From Longimicrobiales bacterium (GTDB lineage Bacteria > Gemmatimonadota > Gemmatimonadetes > Longimicrobiales > Gaopeijiaceae): a stretch of DNA of 64,000 bases. Within the stretch, counting starts at the first letter, position 1. Each line of letters starts with the position of its first letter. The position numbers and the translations under genes were made by a program. Shown here piece after piece: positions 4,579-14,698 of the stretch. The stretch is from assembly GCA_965202805.1 (NCBI GenBank), contig OZ241869.1, positions 2,816,001 to 2,880,000 of the forward strand. The letters are read 5' to 3'. Under the pieces are notes generated by a model. That model saw only the letters and a program-made list of their open reading frames with translations. It searched no databases and had not been told where the DNA came from.

Positions 4579-6672
4579 CTATTCGTCCGCAGCCCCGGGG
4601 TTCTCGATCAGCCAGTGGACGAACCAGGTCCTCAGACGCTCCAGACGATCCACGAGGAGCCACGGCTCACCGGTCCGTGACAGGCCGTGCGACGACCTCG
4701 GGTAGCGCACGAACTCCACAGGTACGCCGAGCTTCTTGAGCGACATGAACCATTGCTCAGCGTCCGCCATGGGAGTGCGCCAGTCCTGCTCGGAGTGGAT
4801 GATCAGCGTGGGCGCGGTCACGTTTTCCACATACGAAAGCGGTGAGAGACGATCGTATAGCTCGCGCTGCTCCCACGGAGGTCCGTAGAACTCGAACTCG
4901 GTCATGTTGGGGATGTCGGACGTGCCCCACCAGCTGTACCAGTTGGAAATGGATCGGCTGGTCACCGCGGCCGCGAAACGGTCCGTGTGCGCGGTGAGCC
5001 AGTTCGTGCTGACGCCACCATAGCTTCCTCCCGACACACCCACCCGGTCCGGATCGATATCCGGATACTTCTCCGTGGCGGCCTCCACGCCCGTGAGGAA
5101 ATCCTCCTCGTCCATCACATGCCAGTTGCCGCGCGTGGCATACTCGAAGTCGTGTCCGTATCCAGCAGAGCCGCGGGGGTTCGAATAGAGAACGAAGAAA
5201 CCGGAAGCCGACAGGACGTGAAAGGTCTGGAAGAAGGTGTTTCCGTACGCCCCGTGCGGCCCACCGTGGATCTTGAGGACCATCGGATACCTTTGGCCGG
5301 GCTCGTATCCCACCGGCTTGACCACCCAGCCCTCGATTACCGTCCCGTCGGCGACGGTCCACGTCAGGCGCTCCGCCGGCATACGGGTAACTTCGGCGAG
5401 CCATGAGTCATTGAACGAGGTGATCCGACGCTCATCCGTTCCGTCGGTCCGCGCAACGTAGACCTCCGACGGTGTGACCGCGTCCGTGACGGCATAGGCC
5501 ATGAACCGCCCGTCTTTTGACGTTGACACCGAGCTGACGCGGCGGTCCCCCGTGGTCACCTGTCGGACCGCGCCTCCGGAAGCGGTTACCTCGAACAGAT
5601 GACTGTTCCCACCGATGGAGGCCTCGAACCGAATCGCCCGGCCGTCGGCGGTCCAGGTCGGAGCGCCCGGCGTCAGCCGCCAGTCCGGCGTCAGATTGCG
5701 CGGATCACCCTGGAACGTCCCGTCCGCGTCCACTGCCACCACCATGAGCTCCTCTTCCCCGCCGTACACGGCGGTCGATATGTAGGCGAGAGTTCTTCCG
5801 TCCGGCGAAACCACCGGATTCGATTCGGACCCGGGATTGGAGGTGATCGGCCTGGGCTGCCCACCCGTACGGGCCACGGCGTAGATGTCCCGGATCACCT
5901 CGACCTCGGGTTCGAACTGACCCGGGTCGGCCGAAAAGAAGAGGGTCTCGCTATCCGACGACCAAGTCACCTGGCCCACGTCGACAGGAAGATCGGTGAG
6001 CTTCCGCGGCGTTCCTCCTTCCGAAGGCACGACGTAGAGTTGCTGTTTCGGAGTGGAGGAGGGGTCGGGCTGGAGCGGCAGGATGCCGTCGCTCTTGTAG
6101 CGAAAGTGGGTGATCACGCGCCCGTCGAACCGTTCGCGGTCGAGAGTGTTGGTGATCGCATTCGGAGCGATCCACCCCGCGCGCCCGTTCTCATCCTCTT
6201 GTTCCTCCGCCCGGGTGTAGGCGATCCACTGCCCGTCCGGCGACCAGGACGGCGCTCCCTCGACTCCCTCGATCCGGTAGGCCTCGCCGCCGGGGGCGGC
6301 CACGGGGACAAACCAGGTTGAGCTTGCCTCGTCGCCGCGCTCGGACTGGAAGCTGATTGCGCTTCCATCCGGTGACCAGGCGGGGGAAGAAGATTCCCGG
6401 GTCGGGTCGCTGAACCGGCGCGGATCACCGACCGGCTGTCCGTCCTCCAATCGCTGTATCCAGACTTCCCTGTGCCGTCTGTTTTCCTCTTCCACGACCG
6501 TGGTGACCACAAAGGCAACGAGGTCGCCCGCCGGCGAAACCGCGACATCCCCGACGGAGGTCATCCGGTAATAGTCCGCCGGCTCGACGCCTCGCATCTG
6601 CGCGCCAACGGAGGATGGGACGAGAATACAGAGCAGAATGGTTGTGGCGGGGCCTGCTAGCATCGTACGCAT
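4579..6672 (-). CDS. S9 family peptidase, secreted
   Basis: Start reset to MRTMLAG (GAGGAG RBS upstream); WSPDG repeats, IHGGPH, GGSYGG, DWRTP, C-terminal HG. Confidence 0.92.
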   Translation of the reverse strand: MRTMLAGPATTILLCILVPSSVGAQMRGVEPADYYRMTSVGDVAVSPAGDLVAFVVTTVVEEENRRHREVWIQRLEDGQPVGDPRRFSDPTRESSSPAWSPDGSAISFQSERGDEASSTWFVPVAAPGGEAYRIEGVEGAPSWSPDGQWIAYTRAEEQEDENGRAGWIAPNAITNTLDRERFDGRVITHFRYKSDGILPLQPDPSSTPKQQLYVVPSEGGTPRKLTDLPVDVGQVTWSSDSETLFFSADPGQFEPEVEVIRDIYAVARTGGQPRPITSNPGSESNPVVSPDGRTLAYISTAVYGGEEELMVVAVDADGTFQGDPRNLTPDWRLTPGAPTWTADGRAIRFEASIGGNSHLFEVTASGGAVRQVTTGDRRVSSVSTSKDGRFMAYAVTDAVTPSEVYVARTDGTDERRITSFNDSWLAEVTRMPAERLTWTVADGTVIEGWVVKPVGYEPGQRYPMVLKIHGGPHGAYGNTFFQTFHVLSASGFFVLYSNPRGSAGYGHDFEYATRGNWHVMDEEDFLTGVEAATEKYPDIDPDRVGVSGGSYGGVSTNWLTAHTDRFAAAVTSRSISNWYSWWGTSDIPNMTEFEFYGPPWEQRELYDRLSPLSYVENVTAPTLIIHSEQDWRTPMADAEQWFMSLKKLGVPVEFVRYPRSSHGLSRTGEPWLLVDRLERLRTWFVHWLIENPGAADE

Positions 6673-6703
6673 GGTACGCTCCTCGGAAACCGGCTTTTCG
6701 CGA

Positions 6704-7942
6704 CTATCCTCCCTGGAAGTTCGGATTGTTCGCGAGTTCCTTGAATGGCAACGGCCAGCAGGTCGTCGCGGAGTACGGTTCGTACCCGACTTTGTGATAC
6801 GGCGTCCCCGGAGACTGGACTCCGCGCAGCACAAAGGGGTCGGTGCGGAAGTAGAGCATCCGCTTCCCTTCCAGGAAAAAGTCCAGTGAGTACTGGTCCA
6901 TGAACTCGATGAAGACGCTTCGATCGTCCATTGCACCGTCGTACGGCGGCTGGCCGTTGGCTTCGCGCCGCGCTTGCACCAGGCTCAACTGGGCTGCATT
7001 CCCCTGGGCATGCGCCGCGATGTAGTCGGCTTCGAGCCTGGACGCGAGCCGGATGGGATCGTTGTAGCTCGTGTATTTCCCGGGGCTGAAGATCTCCGTC
7101 TGCCCATCCATCGCGTTGTGCTTGTTTACTTCCGGTGGAATCACGGTCACGCGAGGATCGTTCAGGTCGCGAAAATCGGGATGCACCGAGACGACCGACT
7201 GTCCGAAGGTGCGATCCCACACCCGGTTCGACAGGCGCGTGCGATTTGCGATGTCGTCCACGAAGGTGAGGTTATACACGAACCCCTCCGCTACCTGACC
7301 GGCGTCCGCGCTGGCCTCGGCCGTCCGCCCGAGCTGAAGATTGGCCCGGGCTCGTCCGACGAGACCGGCATTGACGAAGTCCTGGGCTTCCCCGGGCCCG
7401 AGTCCCCTGCTGACGTCGATGGCCTGAGAGAAGCGGTCCACGGCCGATTCGAGCATCGTGGCCGTGCTGAGTGCCGGCCCGCCGTTCACGGCTCCTTCGC
7501 AGTAGAATTCCGCCATGGCAATGTAGGACCAGCCTGTGAACAACGCGGCTCGTGCCGCGTGGATGCTGGTGGCTACCTCGGTTCCCTCAAGCTGCTCGGC
7601 GACCCGGGTTCCGAGAGCTACCGCCCGGGCGAGCTCCGGGAACTCGCTCGAGAGCGTCTGGTCCACGACGCGCGTGGCCCAGAGGTTCCCCGGCGCGTTG
7701 ATGTCCGCGCTGAGGATCTCCCCGGTGAACCATCCGCCCTCCACGATGAAGTCTCCCCATGCCTGCTTGAAGTCCTGCTGGGTGGACAACGCCAACGCAC
7801 GAGCGTCGCTCACCGGGTCGATTTCCCCGGCATTCACGGCGTTGGGATTGGGTACCGTCAGAAAGTCATCACACCCGGAGACCCCCAGGCTGACGACAAC
7901 AAGTGCGGCCGTGACCAGGCCCCGCGTTCCATTCTCTATCAT
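6704..7942 (-). CDS. RagB/SusD-like outer membrane lipoprotein
   Basis: Lipobox VSGC followed by DDFLTVPNPN; GRARANL TPR-like helices; FFLEGKR and CWPLP..E..NNPN terminus; directly after a SusC-like gene. Confidence 0.85.
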   Translation of the reverse strand: MIENGTRGLVTAALVVVSLGVSGCDDFLTVPNPNAVNAGEIDPVSDARALALSTQQDFKQAWGDFIVEGGWFTGEILSADINAPGNLWATRVVDQTLSSEFPELARAVALGTRVAEQLEGTEVATSIHAARAALFTGWSYIAMAEFYCEGAVNGGPALSTATMLESAVDRFSQAIDVSRGLGPGEAQDFVNAGLVGRARANLQLGRTAEASADAGQVAEGFVYNLTFVDDIANRTRLSNRVWDRTFGQSVVSVHPDFRDLNDPRVTVIPPEVNKHNAMDGQTEIFSPGKYTSYNDPIRLASRLEADYIAAHAQGNAAQLSLVQARREANGQPPYDGAMDDRSVFIEFMDQYSLDFFLEGKRMLYFRTDPFVLRGVQSPGTPYHKVGYEPYSATTCWPLPFKELANNPNFQGG

Positions 7943-7951
7943 GGTTCCCCC

Positions 7952-10900
7952 TCAGAATCCGAGATTCACCCGTATGCCATAGCGGCGTGCCGGGGGCACG
8001 TTGAAGAAGTCATAGGACTGGAATCCCTCTCCCAGGTCTCTCGCAGGGCCGGAGATGGCTTCGGGCGAGTGTCCGGTGTAGTCGGTCCACAAGGCAAGGT
8101 TGCGTGCCGAGAGCGTGACCGTGGCACGATCGGCTCCGAGCTGCTCTGCAAGTTGGGCAGGGAGCGAATACACCAGCGCCAGTTCCCGGAACCGGAGGAA
8201 GTCCGCCTGCTCGTACCAGGCCTCCCGGACCTCCGCCTTGTTCACTTCCTGTCCCGACTCGTTCACGAAGGGGCCAAAGCGGCGGAGCTGCTCTTCCGGC
8301 GAGAGGAAGTCCGGGTCGAACGCCGCGCGAGCCCGGACGAGCTGAATCTCGCGGTACCGGCGCTGGTTGTTGTTCACGTAGTAGTCGCCCTTCCAATCCA
8401 GCTGCGCGGCTACTCGGAGGTCGCCGAGGATCGTCATGGTTGAGGAGATGCTGCCCTCGTGCCCGGGGAATTTCCCACCGATGAACTCGAGCGTGTCCGA
8501 AACGATGACCTGGTTCCCCGCCACGTCGATACGGCGAATCTTCGGGGAGAAGAACGACGAGAGGGGACGCCCCTCGACGAAGCGTTCGAACTGTCCGAAG
8601 GCGGGAAGGTCTCCCAGATCGACGAGTTCATTGGTGAGGGTGCTCGCGGACAGGGTCACGTCCCAGGAGAAAGCGGGTGTGGTGACCACCTGGGCATTCA
8701 GCAGCGCCTCGAAGCCGCGGTTGTGCACCTCCCCGACGTTGTCGAAGGGGTCTTCCCGGAATCCGACCGAGGGCGGGAGCTCCCTCCGAAGAAGCAGATC
8801 CTTCGTCACCTTGTTGAAGTAGGTGAGTTCGAGCCCCAGCCGGTCGTCCAGGAAGCTGGCGTCCACCCCGGCCTCGAATTCCGTCCCCCGCTCGGGTCGC
8901 AGTTCGAGCTTCCCCGGGTTCAGAAGGCCGAGCCCCACCTCGACATTCCCGTCCCTGGTGGCGTACGGAACCGGATCCAGCGTTTCCAGCGTAGCTCCCG
9001 GCGGCGGAGCGCGCCCGGTTGCCCCATACGCCGCACGCAGGCGAATCGTATTGATGAAGCCCAGGCCGTCTCCGAAGAACGGTTCCTCCGAAACAACCCA
9101 CGAAGCTCCGGCCTTCGGCAGGTAGACGGCGCCTACTTCCTCTCCAAAGGAGGAGTTCCGGTCGACGCGCATGCCGACCTGGAAGAATAGCCGATCCTGG
9201 TAGCCGACCTCCCCCTGCCCGATGTACCCGAGCGACCTCTCCCTCAGGAAGCGTTGTCCCCCGGCGCTCTCGGCGGCGGCGGAAACCACGCTTGCGGAGT
9301 TGGTGGCGAGCCCCAGCCCGTCACCCCACAGGAAGTCGTCCCGGATATCGACCACCTGGACCCCGACTGCTCCGTTCGTCGACCACTGGCTGGCTTCACC
9401 GAACCGGAGAGTCGCGTTCGTGATGTAGTCCAGGGTGACGTACTGGAGGCTTCTGCGCGTCTCCCGAACCAATCCGGGATTGTGCGTGGATCGATAGAGG
9501 TTCTGATCGGTCCTGGGGATGTGGCGGACCTTCTCGTTCGATGTGTAGTCGCCACCCACGATGAGCCGATTCGAAAGCCAGTCGAAAGGCTGGAAGCCGA
9601 GCTCGAGAGTGGGCATGTGCCGGACGACATCGACCTCGTTCTTGATGGCCGCGATGGCGTCGACCTGGCGTGGACCGAGCCAGCCGTCGTTGGGCTCCGT
9701 CCCCACCGTAAGGGGGGAACCGAGGAGCGCGTTGGTCACCATCCCGTACAGGCTGTGGTTGTTGTCGGGTTGCCGGCTGTATGTCGTCAACAGCGTGTAG
9801 CCGGCGTTCAGGGTCAGGACGGGGTGCGGGGTCCACGTGACATTGACTCGGCCCGACCGCTTGTCGAAGTCACTTGCCGGGAGGGTGCCATCTTCACCCG
9901 AGGCAAACAGGGAAAGATAGTAGGTGAAGTCTCCCGTGGCCGTTCCCCCTCTCCCGGACCAGCTCAGGGACCTGTTGCTGCCCCTGCTGAAGGCGCCGTA
10001 CCGCTCCAGGGGATTGTCCGATACCACGGTGCCGACGGGCACTCCCTGACAAAGCGTGGCGCCACGGTCGATGTGCGTCTGAGCGCACACGCCCCAATTG
10101 GATGGTGGGGTGAAGTTGTCATGGGAGATGGCGTCGTACTCCGCCGTGAGGGTCTGCCGGAAGCCGCCGGCCGAGCCACGCTTCGTGATGATCTGGATCA
10201 CGCCGGCCGATGCATCCGCACCGTAGAGCGTTGCGGCAGCGGGTCCCTTTACCACCTCGATGCTCTGGATGTCCTCGGGGTTGAGGTCGTTCAGCCGGCT
10301 GGTAGCCTGTCCCCCCGTTCCGGTGCCGCTGCCGGAACCCTCCCCCGGCCGGTTCACCGATTCGATCGTGCCGTTGGCACGAATCCCGTCGATGAAGATG
10401 AGCGGCTCGTTGGAGAGGGATATCGAGGAAGAGCCCCGTATTCGAATCTTCTGTGACGATCCGGTGACGCCCGATCCGTGCGTAACGGACACCCCGGGGA
10501 TCCGGGACTGGAGGACTTCGGAAACGCTGTTGATTGGAGCCAGTTCAATCGTTTCCGCCGCGTCGACGACCGACACCTGCGCCGGCTGGGACCGGCGGAG
10601 GCTTTGACCAGCGGTACCGGTCACGACGATCTCGTCCAGTCCAATGGCTGAGACGGTCAACTCGAAATCGAGGACAGCGGTCTCGTCAAGTACGACGGTA
10701 ACGGTCCGTTCCTCCGTATGATACCCGATCCTTTCGGCACGGATCGTCACTTCACCGACCGGGACATTGATGATCACGAAGGATCCGCTGGCATTCGTCA
10801 ACGTTCCTCGCCCTGTCCCCGGGAGGTGTACCTGGACGCCGGCGAGGGGAAGTGATGTGCCGGCTGCGGTGACCCGTCCGGTAATCCTGCCCTCTTGCGC

Positions 10901-10990
10901 CTGGACCGGACCGGCCAGGGCCAGAAAGAGCAGGACGGAACCCGCCGCTGAAGAAGAAACCCGACGAGTACGACGATTACAGAACATCAT
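7952..10990 (-). CDS. SusC/RagA-like TonB-dependent receptor
   Basis: N-terminal carboxypeptidase-regulatory-like domain, EIVVTGT, plug motif DIQSIEVVKGPAAATLYGADA, C-terminal Phe. Confidence 0.93.
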   Translation of the reverse strand: MMFCNRRTRRVSSSAAGSVLLFLALAGPVQAQEGRITGRVTAAGTSLPLAGVQVHLPGTGRGTLTNASGSFVIINVPVGEVTIRAERIGYHTEERTVTVVLDETAVLDFELTVSAIGLDEIVVTGTAGQSLRRSQPAQVSVVDAAETIELAPINSVSEVLQSRIPGVSVTHGSGVTGSSQKIRIRGSSSISLSNEPLIFIDGIRANGTIESVNRPGEGSGSGTGTGGQATSRLNDLNPEDIQSIEVVKGPAAATLYGADASAGVIQIITKRGSAGGFRQTLTAEYDAISHDNFTPPSNWGVCAQTHIDRGATLCQGVPVGTVVSDNPLERYGAFSRGSNRSLSWSGRGGTATGDFTYYLSLFASGEDGTLPASDFDKRSGRVNVTWTPHPVLTLNAGYTLLTTYSRQPDNNHSLYGMVTNALLGSPLTVGTEPNDGWLGPRQVDAIAAIKNEVDVVRHMPTLELGFQPFDWLSNRLIVGGDYTSNEKVRHIPRTDQNLYRSTHNPGLVRETRRSLQYVTLDYITNATLRFGEASQWSTNGAVGVQVVDIRDDFLWGDGLGLATNSASVVSAAAESAGGQRFLRERSLGYIGQGEVGYQDRLFFQVGMRVDRNSSFGEEVGAVYLPKAGASWVVSEEPFFGDGLGFINTIRLRAAYGATGRAPPPGATLETLDPVPYATRDGNVEVGLGLLNPGKLELRPERGTEFEAGVDASFLDDRLGLELTYFNKVTKDLLLRRELPPSVGFREDPFDNVGEVHNRGFEALLNAQVVTTPAFSWDVTLSASTLTNELVDLGDLPAFGQFERFVEGRPLSSFFSPKIRRIDVAGNQVIVSDTLEFIGGKFPGHEGSISSTMTILGDLRVAAQLDWKGDYYVNNNQRRYREIQLVRARAAFDPDFLSPEEQLRRFGPFVNESGQEVNKAEVREAWYEQADFLRFRELALVYSLPAQLAEQLGADRATVTLSARNLALWTDYTGHSPEAISGPARDLGEGFQSYDFFNVPPARRYGIRVNLGF

Positions 10991-11786: not shown

Positions 11787-11837
11787 CGGCAGAGTTTAGC
11801 TTCTGCCTGGTGACCATGCCAGCCTCATCGATCGAGA

Positions 11838-11920
11838 CGGAGGCGGGGGGACTCGAACCCCCAAGGGCTTGCGCCCGCCGCATTTCGAGTGCGGTGCCTT
11901 ACCAATTAGACTACGCCTCC
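11838..11920 (-). tRNA. tRNA-Ser(CGA)
   Basis: Anticodon arm CCGCA-CTCGAAA-TGCGG, long variable arm, GTTCGAG T loop. Confidence 0.9.
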
Positions 11921-11977
11921 GGACGAAACCGGGCCGATCGGCATAAGGACGGAGAATCTTCTCCAACTACTCTTCAA

Positions 11978-12051
11978 TCGGGGCGCCCGGATTTGAACCG
12001 GGGACCTCTGCGACCCGAACGCAGCGCTCTACCGGACTGAGCCACGCCCCG
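11978..12051 (-). tRNA. tRNA-Pro(CGG)
   Basis: Anticodon arm CTGCG-TTCGGGT-CGCAG. Confidence 0.95.
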
Positions 12052-12130
12052 AGAAAGGGGTGCCGCCCGCAGGCGACATACAGCCAAACTGACAGCCGGA
12101 TCCGCCATCCAGCAAGGTGATTCCCGTCCG

Positions 12131-12391
12131 GCGGACGGGGTGGGATTCGCAGCCGAGGTCCGGCGCCAGCCGGCCCGAAGGCGAGGTGAGGGCGAAGCCC
12201 GCAGCCTCCACCCCGGGTTCGAAGCCCGTCCGGCCCGCCCGCCAGATTGGCCCGCCGTCAGCGGACGGGGTGGGATTCGCAGCCGAGGTCCGGCGCCAGC
12301 CGGCCCGAAGGCGAGGTGAGGAGGCGTAGCCTCCGCAACCTCCACCCTGGGTTCGAAGCCCAGCCCGTCCGGGGCCGGGCTCCGCCCGTCA
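12131..12391 (-). repeat. Two tandem ~130-bp tRNA-linked structured repeats downstream of tRNA-Ser(GGA)
   Basis: GCGGACGGGGTGGGATTCG (tRNA 3' end, + strand) at 12131, 12261 and 12392; shared core CAGCCGAGGTCCGGCGCCAGCCGGCCCGAAGGCGAGGTGAGG. Confidence 0.9.
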
Positions 12392-12392
12392 G

Positions 12393-12476
12393 CGGACGGG
12401 GTGGGATTCGAACCCACGTGGGCGTTAGCCCACACGATTTCCAATCGTGCGCCTTAAGCCACTCGGCCACCCGTCC
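12393..12476 (-). tRNA. tRNA-Ser(GGA)
   Basis: Anticodon arm CACGA-TTGGAAA-TCGTG, long variable arm. Confidence 0.95.
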
Positions 12477-12690
12477 GAACATATGTGGCCACTACAACCT
12501 GCAGGGATACCGCTGAAAGAAACACGGCCGGTTAGACCGTAACGGAGAGCATACCGACGCGAAGCCAAAAGAAACTCGCCCGACGAACGAAGTGATGCCG
12601 AGGGCTCACGATCCAGGGCGAGTACGGCGCGCAGGGCGAGCCGGGAGTCGCCGATGCCTCACTGGCAAAACTACCGCCCCCCAGGACACT

Positions 12691-12929
12691 GGTGAGATCA
12701 CAACCGAGGACCGCGCCAGCCGGCCGAGGTGAGGCGGATGCGCAGCACCGCAACCCTCCGCCTCGGGGGTAGCGGCCAGCGACCGCGCCCGTTGGTGACT
12801 ACACAGGGTGAGGTTCGCAGCCGAGGTCCGGCGCCAGCCGGCCCGAAGGCGAGGTGAGGAGGCGAAGCCTCCGCAACCTCCACCCCGGGTTCGAATCCCA
12901 CCCCCTCCGGGGCGAGCCCCGCTCGCCAG
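12691..12929 (-). repeat. One intact (12806-12929) and one degenerate (~12691-12790) copy of the same repeat downstream of tRNA-Ser(GCT)
   Basis: Same core at 12818-12859; decayed core CAACCGAGGACCGCGCCAGCCGGCCGAGGTGAGG at 12701-12734. Confidence 0.85.
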
Positions 12930-13015
12930 CGGAGGGGGTGGGATTCGAACCCACGAGACCCTCTCGGGTCAACGCCTTAGCAGGGCGCCGCCTTAAGCCA
13001 CTCGGCCACCCCTCC
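12930..13015 (-). tRNA. tRNA-Ser(GCT)
   Basis: Anticodon arm GCGCC-CTGCTAA-GGCGT, long variable arm. Confidence 0.95.
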
Positions 13016-13018
13016 GAA

Positions 13019-13091
13019 TTGCCCCGCCTGGGATCGAACCAGGACTCTTCTGATCCAGAGTCAGACGTGTTGCCAGTTACACCACGGGGCA
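13019..13091 (-). tRNA. tRNA-Gln(CTG)
   Basis: Anticodon arm TCTGA-CTCTGGA-TCAGA. Confidence 0.95.
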
Positions 13092-13136
13092 TCCTGTCCC
13101 AATTTGTGCGCTCGCCACCCCTGCTGGCAAGCAGCA

Positions 13137-13209
13137 AGCCACCAGTCGGATTCGAACCGACGACCCCGTCATTACGAGTGACGTGCTCTACCAGCTGAGC
13201 TATGGTGGC
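13137..13209 (-). tRNA. tRNA-Thr(CGT)
   Basis: Anticodon arm CGTCA-CTCGTAA-TGACG. Confidence 0.95.
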
Positions 13210-13259
13210 GACCATGCCGACCGCCTCGCGCATCGCGCATTTCGCCGGCCAACCAGGAA

Positions 13260-13332
13260 TGGAGCCGAGGGGAATCGAACCCCTGACCTCAGCATTGCGA
13301 ACGCTGCGCTCTCCCAACTGAGCTACGGCCCC
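13260..13332 (-). tRNA. tRNA-Ala(CGC)
   Basis: Anticodon arm CAGCG-TTCGCAA-TGCTG; G3:U70 pair. Confidence 0.95.
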
Positions 13333-13367
13333 TGCCTGCCCGCTTCCGCGGATACCGTGTTGAAGCA

Positions 13368-13441
13368 TGGGCGCGAGAGGACTCGAACCTCTGACCTCTA
13401 CGATGTCAACGTAGCGCTCTAACCAGCTGAGCTACGCGCCC
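13368..13441 (-). tRNA. tRNA-Val(GAC)
   Basis: Anticodon arm CTACG-TTGACAT-CGTAG. Confidence 0.95.
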
Positions 13442-13485
13442 TCGGCCGGAACCCCGTCCTGGCCTTCACCTCCCCCGGAGGGGAA

Positions 13486-13559
13486 TACGCCCGGGAGGAC
13501 TCGAACCCCCAACCTCTTGATCCGTAGTCAAGCGCTCTGTCCAATTGAGCTACGGGCGC
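13486..13559 (-). tRNA. tRNA-Arg(ACG)
   Basis: Anticodon arm CTTGA-CTACGGA-TCAAG. Confidence 0.95.
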
Positions 13560-13611
13560 TGATTTGCCGTCCGCCTTCACCAGGGAAGGCCAGCCGTTGA
13601 TGGCCTGCAAG

Positions 13612-13695
13612 TGCCCACGACAGGACTCGAACCTGTACGCCGTTTCCGACACTGGTCCCTCAAACCAGCCTGTCTACCAATTCCAGCACGTGGGC
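13612..13695 (-). tRNA. tRNA-Leu(GAG)
   Basis: Anticodon arm CTGGT-TTGAGGG-ACCAG, variable arm. Confidence 0.95.
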
Positions 13696-13744
13696 AAATG
13701 TTCTCCATCGAAACGCTGCCGCCGCCTGGCGCCGCGGCCTGCCA

Positions 13745-13829
13745 TGCTCGGAGAGGGACTCGAACCCTCACGGGGTTAACCCCCACAGGATCCTGAATCC
13801 TGCGCGTCTACCAATTCCGCCATCCGAGC
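13745..13829 (-). tRNA. tRNA-Leu(CAG)
   Basis: Anticodon arm CAGGA-TTCAGGA-TCCTG, variable arm. Confidence 0.95.
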
Positions 13830-13857
13830 TCGCTCGCCTCGCGAACGGACTGCACCA

Positions 13858-13930
13858 TGGAGCCGAGGGGAATCGAACCCCTGACCTCCTGAATGCCATT
13901 CAGGCGCTCTCCCAACTGAGCTACGGCCCC
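13858..13930 (-). tRNA. tRNA-Ala(GGC)
   Basis: Anticodon arm CCTGA-ATGGCAT-TCAGG; G3:U70 pair. Confidence 0.95.
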
Positions 13931-13970
13931 GATCCTTCGCCGATGACCCGATTTGTCAAGAAACAAACAG

Positions 13971-14044
13971 CGGGGCTGACGGGACTCGAACCCGCGGCCT
14001 CCGGTGTGACAGACCGGCACTCTAACCAACTGAGCTACAGCCCC
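13971..14044 (-). tRNA. tRNA-Asp(GTC)
   Basis: Anticodon arm CCGGT-CTGTCAC-ACCGG. Confidence 0.95.
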
Positions 14045-14074
14045 TGTTCCGCGCTCCTCGCGCGTCCTTCCAAA

Positions 14075-14146
14075 CGCCCTCACGGGGAATCGAACCCCGA
14101 CCGCCACCTTGAAAGAGTGGTGTCCTAGCCGTTAGACGATGAGGGC
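14075..14146 (-). tRNA. tRNA-Glu(TTC)
   Basis: Anticodon arm CCACT-CTTTCAA-GGTGG. Confidence 0.95.
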
Positions 14147-14162
14147 TCTCCCCCCAGTTGTA

Positions 14163-14235
14163 CAGGCCCGGAGGGACTCGAACCCCCAACCCCCGGTTTT
14201 GGAGACCGGTGCTCTACCAGTTGAGCTACGGACCC
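14163..14235 (-). tRNA. tRNA-Trp(CCA)
   Basis: Anticodon arm CCGGT-CTCCAAA-ACCGG. Confidence 0.95.
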
Positions 14236-14278
14236 CCGCGCACACAACCGGCCATCCTCCGGCCGGTGAGCCGGTAGA

Positions 14279-14351
14279 TGGCCAGGGGCGGAATCGAACC
14301 GCCGACACCGCGATTTTCAGTCGCGTGCTCTACCAACTGAGCTACCTGGCC
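14279..14351 (-). tRNA. tRNA-Phe(GAA)
   Basis: Anticodon arm CGCGA-CTGAAAA-TCGCG. Confidence 0.95.
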
Positions 14352-14382
14352 AAAAAAACGCCCGAACCTTTTCGGTGCGGGC
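14352..14382 (-). terminator. Intrinsic terminator abutting the 5' end of tRNA-Phe
   Basis: Minus strand CGCCCGCACC-GAAAA-GGTTCGGGCG followed by T7. Confidence 0.7.
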
Positions 14383-14407
14383 GGCTGGGTCGGGAGTCTG
14401 CCGGGGG

Positions 14408-14536
14408 CTACCGGCGAGTCCCGCTTCCCCGCCCGCGAGGGCTCGACCACGTATCGGACGGAAACCAGCGAAGCGCCCGCACGCGGCCCGACCTCTGGAA
14501 GGCCCGCGGTCGACGGGTTTCGGTCGCTCCCCGCAT
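14408..14536 (-). CDS. Putative 42-aa leader peptide MRGATETRRPRAFQRSGRVRALRWFPSDTWSSPRGRGSGTRR
   Basis: GGAGGCGGAGATC-ATG start context; stop lies 25 nt before the terminator hairpin; below the ORF-track size cutoff. Confidence 0.4.
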   Translation of the reverse strand: MRGATETRRPRAFQRSGRVRALRWFPSDTWSSPRGRGSGTRR

Positions 14537-14592
14537 GATCTCCGCCTCCGTTCTCCTGTTTGTTGCCTTGCGTCAAACTGTCCTGCTACGTG

Positions 14593-14621
14593 GAAAACGC
14601 CGCCATTTCGGCGGCGCTTTC
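14593..14621 (-). terminator. Hairpin or weak terminator right after tRNA-fMet
   Basis: Minus strand CGCCGCC-GAAAT-GGCGGCG-TTTT. Confidence 0.55.
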
Positions 14622-14624
14622 AAG

Positions 14625-14698
<74 letters not shown>

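Follow-up and report, generated by a model that had tools for sequence, protein, structure and literature searches.

Behind two tRNA-Ser genes of the stretch of DNA analysed here (64,000 nucleotides from a Longimicrobiales bacterium, hereafter the window), the 3' end of the gene is followed by an inverted copy of itself; this raises the question of what these repeat units are and how each of them came to carry the sequence of its own host tRNA. Both genes belong to a minus-strand cluster of 17 tRNA genes (window 11836-14698, ARAGORN), most of which lack an encoded CCA. The GC-skew minimum (C1:2852554, window about 36550) is about 22-25 kb away from the cluster, which is co-directional with replication; a third host gene of the source genome, Ser(TGA), is head-on according to the GC skew, and the orientation of the units thus follows the tRNA and not replication. 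Elsewhere in the window (4579-10990, minus strand), a TonB-dependent receptor (1012 aa), a 412-aa lipoprotein-like partner without a Pfam match, and an S9 peptidase are encoded in a row.

The units are non-coding and measure about 125-135 bp. On the tRNA strand, the host 3' end is followed first by a hairpin spacer and the inverted arm, then by GGGT(T/G) and the core of about 63 nt, and finally by a direct copy of the host end starting from CGAATCC. Their flanks are host-specific, their core is shared, and the copies of the host end follow one another in direct-inverted-direct order. The two loci comprise the following features:

12929..13015, minus strand: host tRNA-Ser(GCT), no encoded CCA (ARAGORN, Rfam, sequence)
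12930-12952, minus strand: T-arm and acceptor 3' strand of Ser(GCT) (sequence)
12910..12929, minus strand: Ser(GCT) spacer hairpin, the fold-back apex, with a 7-bp stem at 12911-12927 (sequence, folding)
12887..12909, plus strand: Ser(GCT) inverted arm, a 23/23 mirror of the T-arm and acceptor strand (sequence)
12881..12885, minus strand: eroded 5' part of the duplicated T-arm in GCT unit 1, GGGTG (GGGTT in most relatives; alignment, junction tally)
12818..12880, plus strand: hairpin core of GCT unit 1, its GNA-loop strand being the plus strand, opposite to the tRNA; inserted after TTCG on the plus strand
12804..12817, minus strand: degenerate direct duplicate of the tRNA 3' end in the Ser(GCT) unit, 10/14 (sequence)
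12701..12759, plus strand: decayed second core behind Ser(GCT), with no recognisable arm (nhmmer E 5.6e-4)
12392..12476, minus strand: host tRNA-Ser(GGA) (ARAGORN, Rfam)
12372..12392, minus strand: spacer hairpin of GGA unit 1 (sequence, folding)
12349..12371, plus strand: inverted arm of GGA unit 1, a 21/23 mirror of Ser(GGA) with the GGA-specific base (sequence)
12280..12342, plus strand: hairpin core of GGA unit 1 (core profile)
12255..12279, minus strand: direct duplicate of GGA unit 1, 18 nt of tRNA and 7 nt of trailer, identical to the host
12215..12233, plus strand: shortened arm of GGA unit 2, with a 4-nt deletion (sequence)
12150..12208, plus strand: hairpin core of GGA unit 2 (core profile)
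12132..12149, minus strand: direct duplicate of the Ser(GGA) 3' end in GGA unit 2, 18 nt identical (plus one trailer base)

According to the original prediction, the Ser(GCT) arm should be a perfect inverted copy of the tRNA end; 12887-12909 is indeed the exact reverse complement of 12930-12952 (23/23), and the 20-nt spacer between them (12910-12929) contains, as proposed, the hairpin GGCGAGC-CCC-GCTCGCC (12911-12927). The Ser(GGA) arm (12349-12371) has the reported sequence and ends in GTCCG like its tRNA, but it carries two mismatches (21/23). That each repeat should have an arm matched to its own host holds for the first units at both genes and is too strong as a general statement, since the second GGA arm is short by 4 nt and the second GCT copy has no recognisable one.

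The source genome harbors 57 ARAGORN tRNA calls (one of them, at C1:502084-502165, with the stop anticodon TTA), and an inverted copy of the 3' end within 120 nt was found only at three Ser genes, namely Ser(GCT), Ser(GGA), and Ser(TGA) (C1:693182-693266, arm 19/23 versus the host). The local scores of the inverted copy are 23, 20, and 16, respectively, and 10 or less for all the other tRNAs. The core profile retrieved six copies from this genome, two at each of the same three genes, and nothing else of note. The two tRNA-plus-trailer folds beat every shuffle (z -6.6, 0/200; z -5.0, 0/100), and no Rfam family other than tRNA exceeded the threshold at the window units; at 20 other loci, Rfam returned just tRNA and sub-threshold matches, one of them to AaHKsRNA22. 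As the ends of Ser(GCT) and Ser(GGA) differ by a single base in the arm stretch, the tracking of the host within the window hangs on one position.

A 20-nt core pattern searched over genome contigs matched 23 stretches, and the core is common to Longimicrobiales/Gemmatimonadetes records; five of the 23, from other phyla, were rejected as chance matches, being located inside coding-looking DNA with no tRNA. In the genus, the arm is present at 14/15 Ser(GCT), 13/15 Ser(GGA), 16/17 Ser(TGA), and 0/15 Ser(CGA) loci, the units being absent at some orthologous loci (GCT and GGA of G007, GGA of G013, TGA of G010). Up to three or four units per locus occur in relatives, versus two cores per locus in the source genome. 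All 42 first-unit arms scored match their own host at 19-23 of 23 positions, two of them perfectly. The diagnostic base G is shared by 11 of 13 GGA arms and by none of the 29 GCT and TGA arms. The idea that the arm tracks the resident tRNA while the core stays constant is therefore borne out in the genus, as it is in the relative G026 and in E. coli (see below), though not strictly: in G002 and G009 the GGA arm has the GCT-type base. The GGA cores of these two genomes are nearly identical to their own GCT cores, which suggests a conversion of the whole unit without re-templating. Where duplicate and host differ in the genus (n = 30), the arm pairs with the host in 24 cases, with the duplicate in five, and with neither in one. 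These loci are orthologous and hence represent few independent events.

The GCT unit of the relative G011 has the same spacer as that of the window and an arm with the same two mismatches as the window GGA arm; thus, the perfect Ser(GCT) arm of the window may be a later, host-directed correction. A tree built on 14 of the 15 genus loci (G003 was left out owing to its short flank) resolved no direction for such a re-perfection. The concerted evolution of the cores is weak, with 0.800 within genomes versus 0.797 between orthologues (GCT-GGA, 0.875 versus 0.835).

The original prediction called for a test of the co-variation of the arm at other isotypes, and co-variation was found within G026, within E. 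coli, and in a set of at least 91 loci. G026, a single-contig genome of the same family, harbors one and the same core at Cys(GCA), Pro(GGG), Pro(CGG), Ser(GCT), and Ser(TGA); four of the five arms have their own host as best match, and the fifth matches best the other Ser. At Pro(GGG), the mirror is exact over 24 nt and extends six trailer bases past the tRNA. At the two Pro loci of this genome (GGG and CGG; L263, L273), a second hairpin insert interrupts the arm itself, after GGATTCG or GGATTTG, a case of nested insertions at T-loop-like sites.

In E. coli K-12, repeats named TLRs occupy a comparable position. In the available part of PMC8144298 they are attributed to Rudd (1999) and described as repeats of no known function, with one to five copies at each of ten loci and 22 in all, whose last 18-19 bp are identical to the end of the upstream tRNA or rRNA; RtT RNA is reported as expressed and stress-responsive, with no origin given, in the accessible portions of bioRxiv 2024.07.17.603846, PMC4147364, and PMC2864571. 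A TLR was found at 13 of the 15 tRNA rows examined. Six of them have a clear inverted arm (Tyr twice, Pro, Lys twice, Ser), and the seven others are shorter units that lack it; the own host is the best match of four of the six arms and is tied best for the other two.

A generic pattern (T-arm, 20-50 nt, inverted T-arm) searched over genome contigs gave at least 120 matches, and those listed comprise 94 single tRNAs with an arm, eight pairs of convergent tRNAs, and 18 stretches without a tRNA call. The co-variation set consists of 91 of these 94 loci (three were dropped because of N or a short flank) from bacteria and archaea, in 35 isotype/anticodon classes. Among these listed matches, the arm agrees with the host at T-loop positions 57 and 59 in 167/182 comparisons (shuffled mean 106), at positions 63-65 in 161/273 (shuffled 87), and at positions 49-51 in 127/273 (shuffled 88), and none of 5000 shuffles reached the agreement observed at 57/59 and 63-65, with the proviso that the shuffle ignores lineage and that the search pattern itself forces part of the match. 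Outside the family of the window the acceptor strand co-varies weakly (193/637 versus 158 shuffled), and a downstream direct copy of at least 15/18 is present in 49 of the same 91 listed loci. Because the shuffle is blind to lineage and chance hits may be included, it is the within-genome cases that carry weight; a strict-pattern search of 10 other genomes gave few units in each, too few for within-genome tests.

As regards the hosts, tRNA-Ser is the commonest, with 19 of the 91 generic loci (among the matches listed) and nearly all the units examined in the phylum. A looser pattern applied to 301 Gemmatimonadota genomes matched in 32 of them versus two for the reversed control, and the true units among the loci examined are at Ser genes, with one at Cys. 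In another family of the class (L246-L252, Ser genes), the variable arm and the 5' strand of the T-stem of the host recur as a direct copy ahead of the core; at Ser(GGA) within this group, an inverted copy of the same segment is present too. Viral contigs contain 40 stretches with the pattern, 15 of which were parsed as tRNA plus arm; several of these are in truth a second, tRNA-like gene behind the first, and one has a duplicate. At phage tRNA-Gly(TCC) (L289:1447-2242, L309, L311, L316), a 12-nt inverted T-arm is followed by a gene for a GIY-YIG-like protein of 217-223 aa (Pfam, below the cut-off); a duplicate of the tRNA end was not found at the two of these four loci that were inspected, and we take the phage loci as no more than a lead.

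Concerning the core, its borders were tallied on the 34 cores that could be parsed in sister lineages and E. coli; no start could be parsed for another 14 units. The 30 cores of sister genera and one other family, and the four of E. coli, start mostly after (T)TCG, and all 34 end before the ATCC of the duplicate; the core, which measures 60-90 nt in units of this design, is therefore inserted within the T-loop of the direct copy, and no target is repeated around it. In the genus of the window, 32 of 36 cores start after GGGATTCG on the opposite strand, and most of the 36 rows read GGGATTCG, core, (A/C)ACCC, a junction placed symmetrically to that of the sister cores within the palindrome TTCGAA. 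In this direction, these cores start with CA(A/G)CCGAGG and end like GGCTC, just like the tRNA strand of the sister cores. The opposite-strand reading gives the better alignment for all 30 family cores, composition explaining part of this (40.0 versus 35.5 shuffled). The core of the window genus thus appears to be reversed relative to that of the sister genera, with a modest similarity for the reversed reading (median z 2.8; nhmmer E 3.1). A simple inversion between arm and duplicate was considered and discarded, as it would place the core inside the arm.

GNA triloops are a mark of stable DNA mini-hairpins. In the other lineages, 26 of them were found on the tRNA strand in 43 cores versus 5.0 in shuffles; in the genus of the window, GNA on the opposite strand accounts for 30 of the 34 inner loops that are intact. 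The stems of the core are kept by compensatory changes, as judged from the alignment of 36 units with 49 double-sided changes versus 16.2 in shuffles, a figure that relatedness inflates. G.T pairs favour the tRNA strand (53 versus 5), but 51 are confined to one helix segment without double-sided change, and the evidence on the strand is thus mixed.

Taken as a whole, we lean, by a little more than an even chance, towards the reading that the units are TLR-type non-autonomous DNA units whose flanks are copied from the target by fold-back synthesis. The original prediction had the arm either templated from the target during insertion or kept matched by conversion; copying is the simplest account, given the co-variation and the trailer mirror of G026, and a later conversion is likely as well. 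In such a mechanism, a cut or stalled strand would fold back at the trailer hairpin, copy the T-arm backwards and then turn again, and the core would enter the T-loop hairpin of either strand as single-stranded DNA. The units would then amplify in tandem via the direct repeat of 18-25 bp and be converted between near-identical Ser ends. Finally, the arm would decay or, occasionally, be re-perfected against the adjacent host by quasi-palindrome correction. In the source genome and genus-wide, the core is found at only three Ser loci, so that here it is possibly old and vertically kept rather than mobile.

A different explanation, which we consider rather unlikely, is that a function at the RNA level keeps the arm matched: the co-transcribed unit would be a small RNA or would tune the 3' processing of the CCA-less Ser precursors, the arm pairing with the tRNA end or with the duplicate. 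The maturation switch put forward in the original prediction is one version of it, and it found no support in the comparison of the loci, since the duplicate that should sequester the arm is degenerate at Ser(GCT) (10/14), leaving the arm without a good alternative partner, the arm follows the host and not the duplicate (24 versus 5 of 30), and the unit is missing at several orthologous loci. The predicted invasion of the cloverleaf fared better: folding of tRNA and trailer in silico favours it at equilibrium by 35 (GCT) and 23.5 (GGA) kcal/mol, and the arm may thus affect tRNA processing, although nothing points to two regulated states. Moreover, the units are situated within a tRNA cluster, nothing resembling a terminator was found between the tRNA and its arm, and the units are retained across the genus with compensatory changes. 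One RNA-library contig joins Ser(GGA) and its arm (12333-12479, two differences); such contigs are unstranded and of low depth, derive from relatives and from a small share of the runs, and have no silent control; stretches that they leave uncovered are uninformative, and DNA carry-over could produce the one at Ser(GGA). For the related TLRs RrA/B/F of E. coli, the available part of PMC8144298 states transcription, processing, and binding to Hfq and CsrA. Against an RNA role, on the other hand, the absences extend from the orthologous loci of G007 (GCT and GGA), G013 (GGA), and G010 (TGA) to 15/15 Ser(CGA), the core has GNA triloops and, among related genera, seems to occur on one strand or the other, and selection alone would be unable to make a matched arm of 13-24 nt at a new isotype. 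The lone Ser(GCT) gene, the sole call with that anticodon in the source genome, tolerates a perfect antisense arm 20 nt downstream; the tRNA probably escapes it by folding and being cut first.

Fold-back copying might also proceed without any dedicated enzyme, as replication accidents in which the T-arm palindrome and trailer hairpins seed tandem inversion duplications, unrelated hairpin repeats being collected later. Near-core-less forms do exist (at Lys loci of Lachnospiraceae, where 9-11 nt separate the arm from the duplicate), a few arms are pure snap-backs whose apices measure 3-8 nt (L191, TGA of G006), and the searches for an enzyme were negative. No Y1 transposase (PF01797) was found in the source genome and five relatives, all at least 95% complete; a search for a reverse transcriptase was negative; and no recurring mobility gene emerged from the longest frames beside the units at 77 of the 94 loci (one GIY-YIG, one IS240-type). 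The single GIY-YIG hit of the source genome is far from the units, in a long frame. Nevertheless, such accidents leave unexplained why five tRNAs of three isotypes have one core in common in G026, why distant lineages share a fixed junction after TTCG, and why the core shows compensatory changes; we regard them as improbable.

Least probable of all is the scar of an integrase element, with the direct duplicate as its attR site and the core as a collapsed island: the duplicate does start in the T-loop, a usual crossover site of tRNA-targeting tyrosine integrases, but no tyrosine integrase domain (PF00589) lies within about 180 kb of either locus (the source genome has 11 tyrosine-recombinase domains, the nearest PF00589 being ~187 kb and 386 kb away), and an att exchange neither makes an inverted, host-specific arm nor places a single core, newly flanked, at the ends of Cys, Pro, and Ser tRNAs.

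Returning to the units as DNA elements with target-copied flanks, we can compare them with known systems. With attL/attR duplications they share the direct repeat of a tRNA 3' end that starts in the T-loop; they differ in the inverted host-specific arm, in the same core at unlike isotypes, and in having no nearby integrase or cargo. REP/REPIN/BIME sequences and elements of the IS200/IS605 type (HUH Y1) likewise have short GNA-loop hairpins and no coding capacity. IS200/IS605-type elements insert 3' of a tetranucleotide without target duplication, and the junction pattern TTCG^AA of the units is compatible with this rule, as judged from the sequence. Unlike REP/REPIN/BIME, the units are not dispersed (six core hits at three tRNA loci), and, unlike both groups, their flanks are copied from the target and no Y1 transposase was detected in six genomes.

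The closest likeness is to the TLRs, including RtT/rttR of tyrT-tyrV (RF00391), which are likewise located directly behind tRNA genes in tandem copies; they too can have a T-arm copy that is inverted and matched to the host, and their hairpin core is flanked by GGTTCG and AATCC. The 18-19 bp of host 3' end typical of TLRs are found in both GGA units of the window (18 nt identical), are decayed at GCT (10/14) and partly so at TGA; the two cores per locus fall within the one to five copies of TLRs. As for the differences, the GNA-loop strand of the window core is opposite to the tRNA, the arm is longer, nearer to the host (19-23/23) and keeps the TTCGAA loop, which the Tyr, Pro, and Ser TLRs change to TGAGAA, and the units are confined to three Ser genes. 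The RtT model (RF00391) gave no match above threshold at the units or in the source genome; hence, window units and TLRs share a design and not a detectable sequence. No description of the inverted, host-matched arm was found in the literature searched, as far as the consulted parts extend, and Rudd (1999) may contain one.

TLRs have been left for decades without a function or an origin, according to the available part of PMC8144298. A tentative and wider proposal, which we put forward as possible while thinking it more probably wrong than right, is that TLR/RtT-type units represent one design across bacteria and archaea: a protein-less single-stranded DNA element that would target the TTCG^AA T-loop hairpin on either strand and write target-matched ends by fold-back copying. 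If true, this would amount to a new insertion mechanism that is templated by its target and carried out by a host or phage enzyme; the origin of the E. coli TLRs, which have been known since 1978, would then be accounted for. In any case, the host-matched arm, the fixed T-loop junction, and one core at several isotypes turn the origin of TLRs into a testable question. The present locus contributes to it the test of host tracking, the finding that E. coli TLRs have the same arm, the junction at TTCG, and a core that is probably reversed; to the known TLRs, the window adds a variant from Gemmatimonadota whose arm is unusually long and near-perfect and whose core is apparently reversed.
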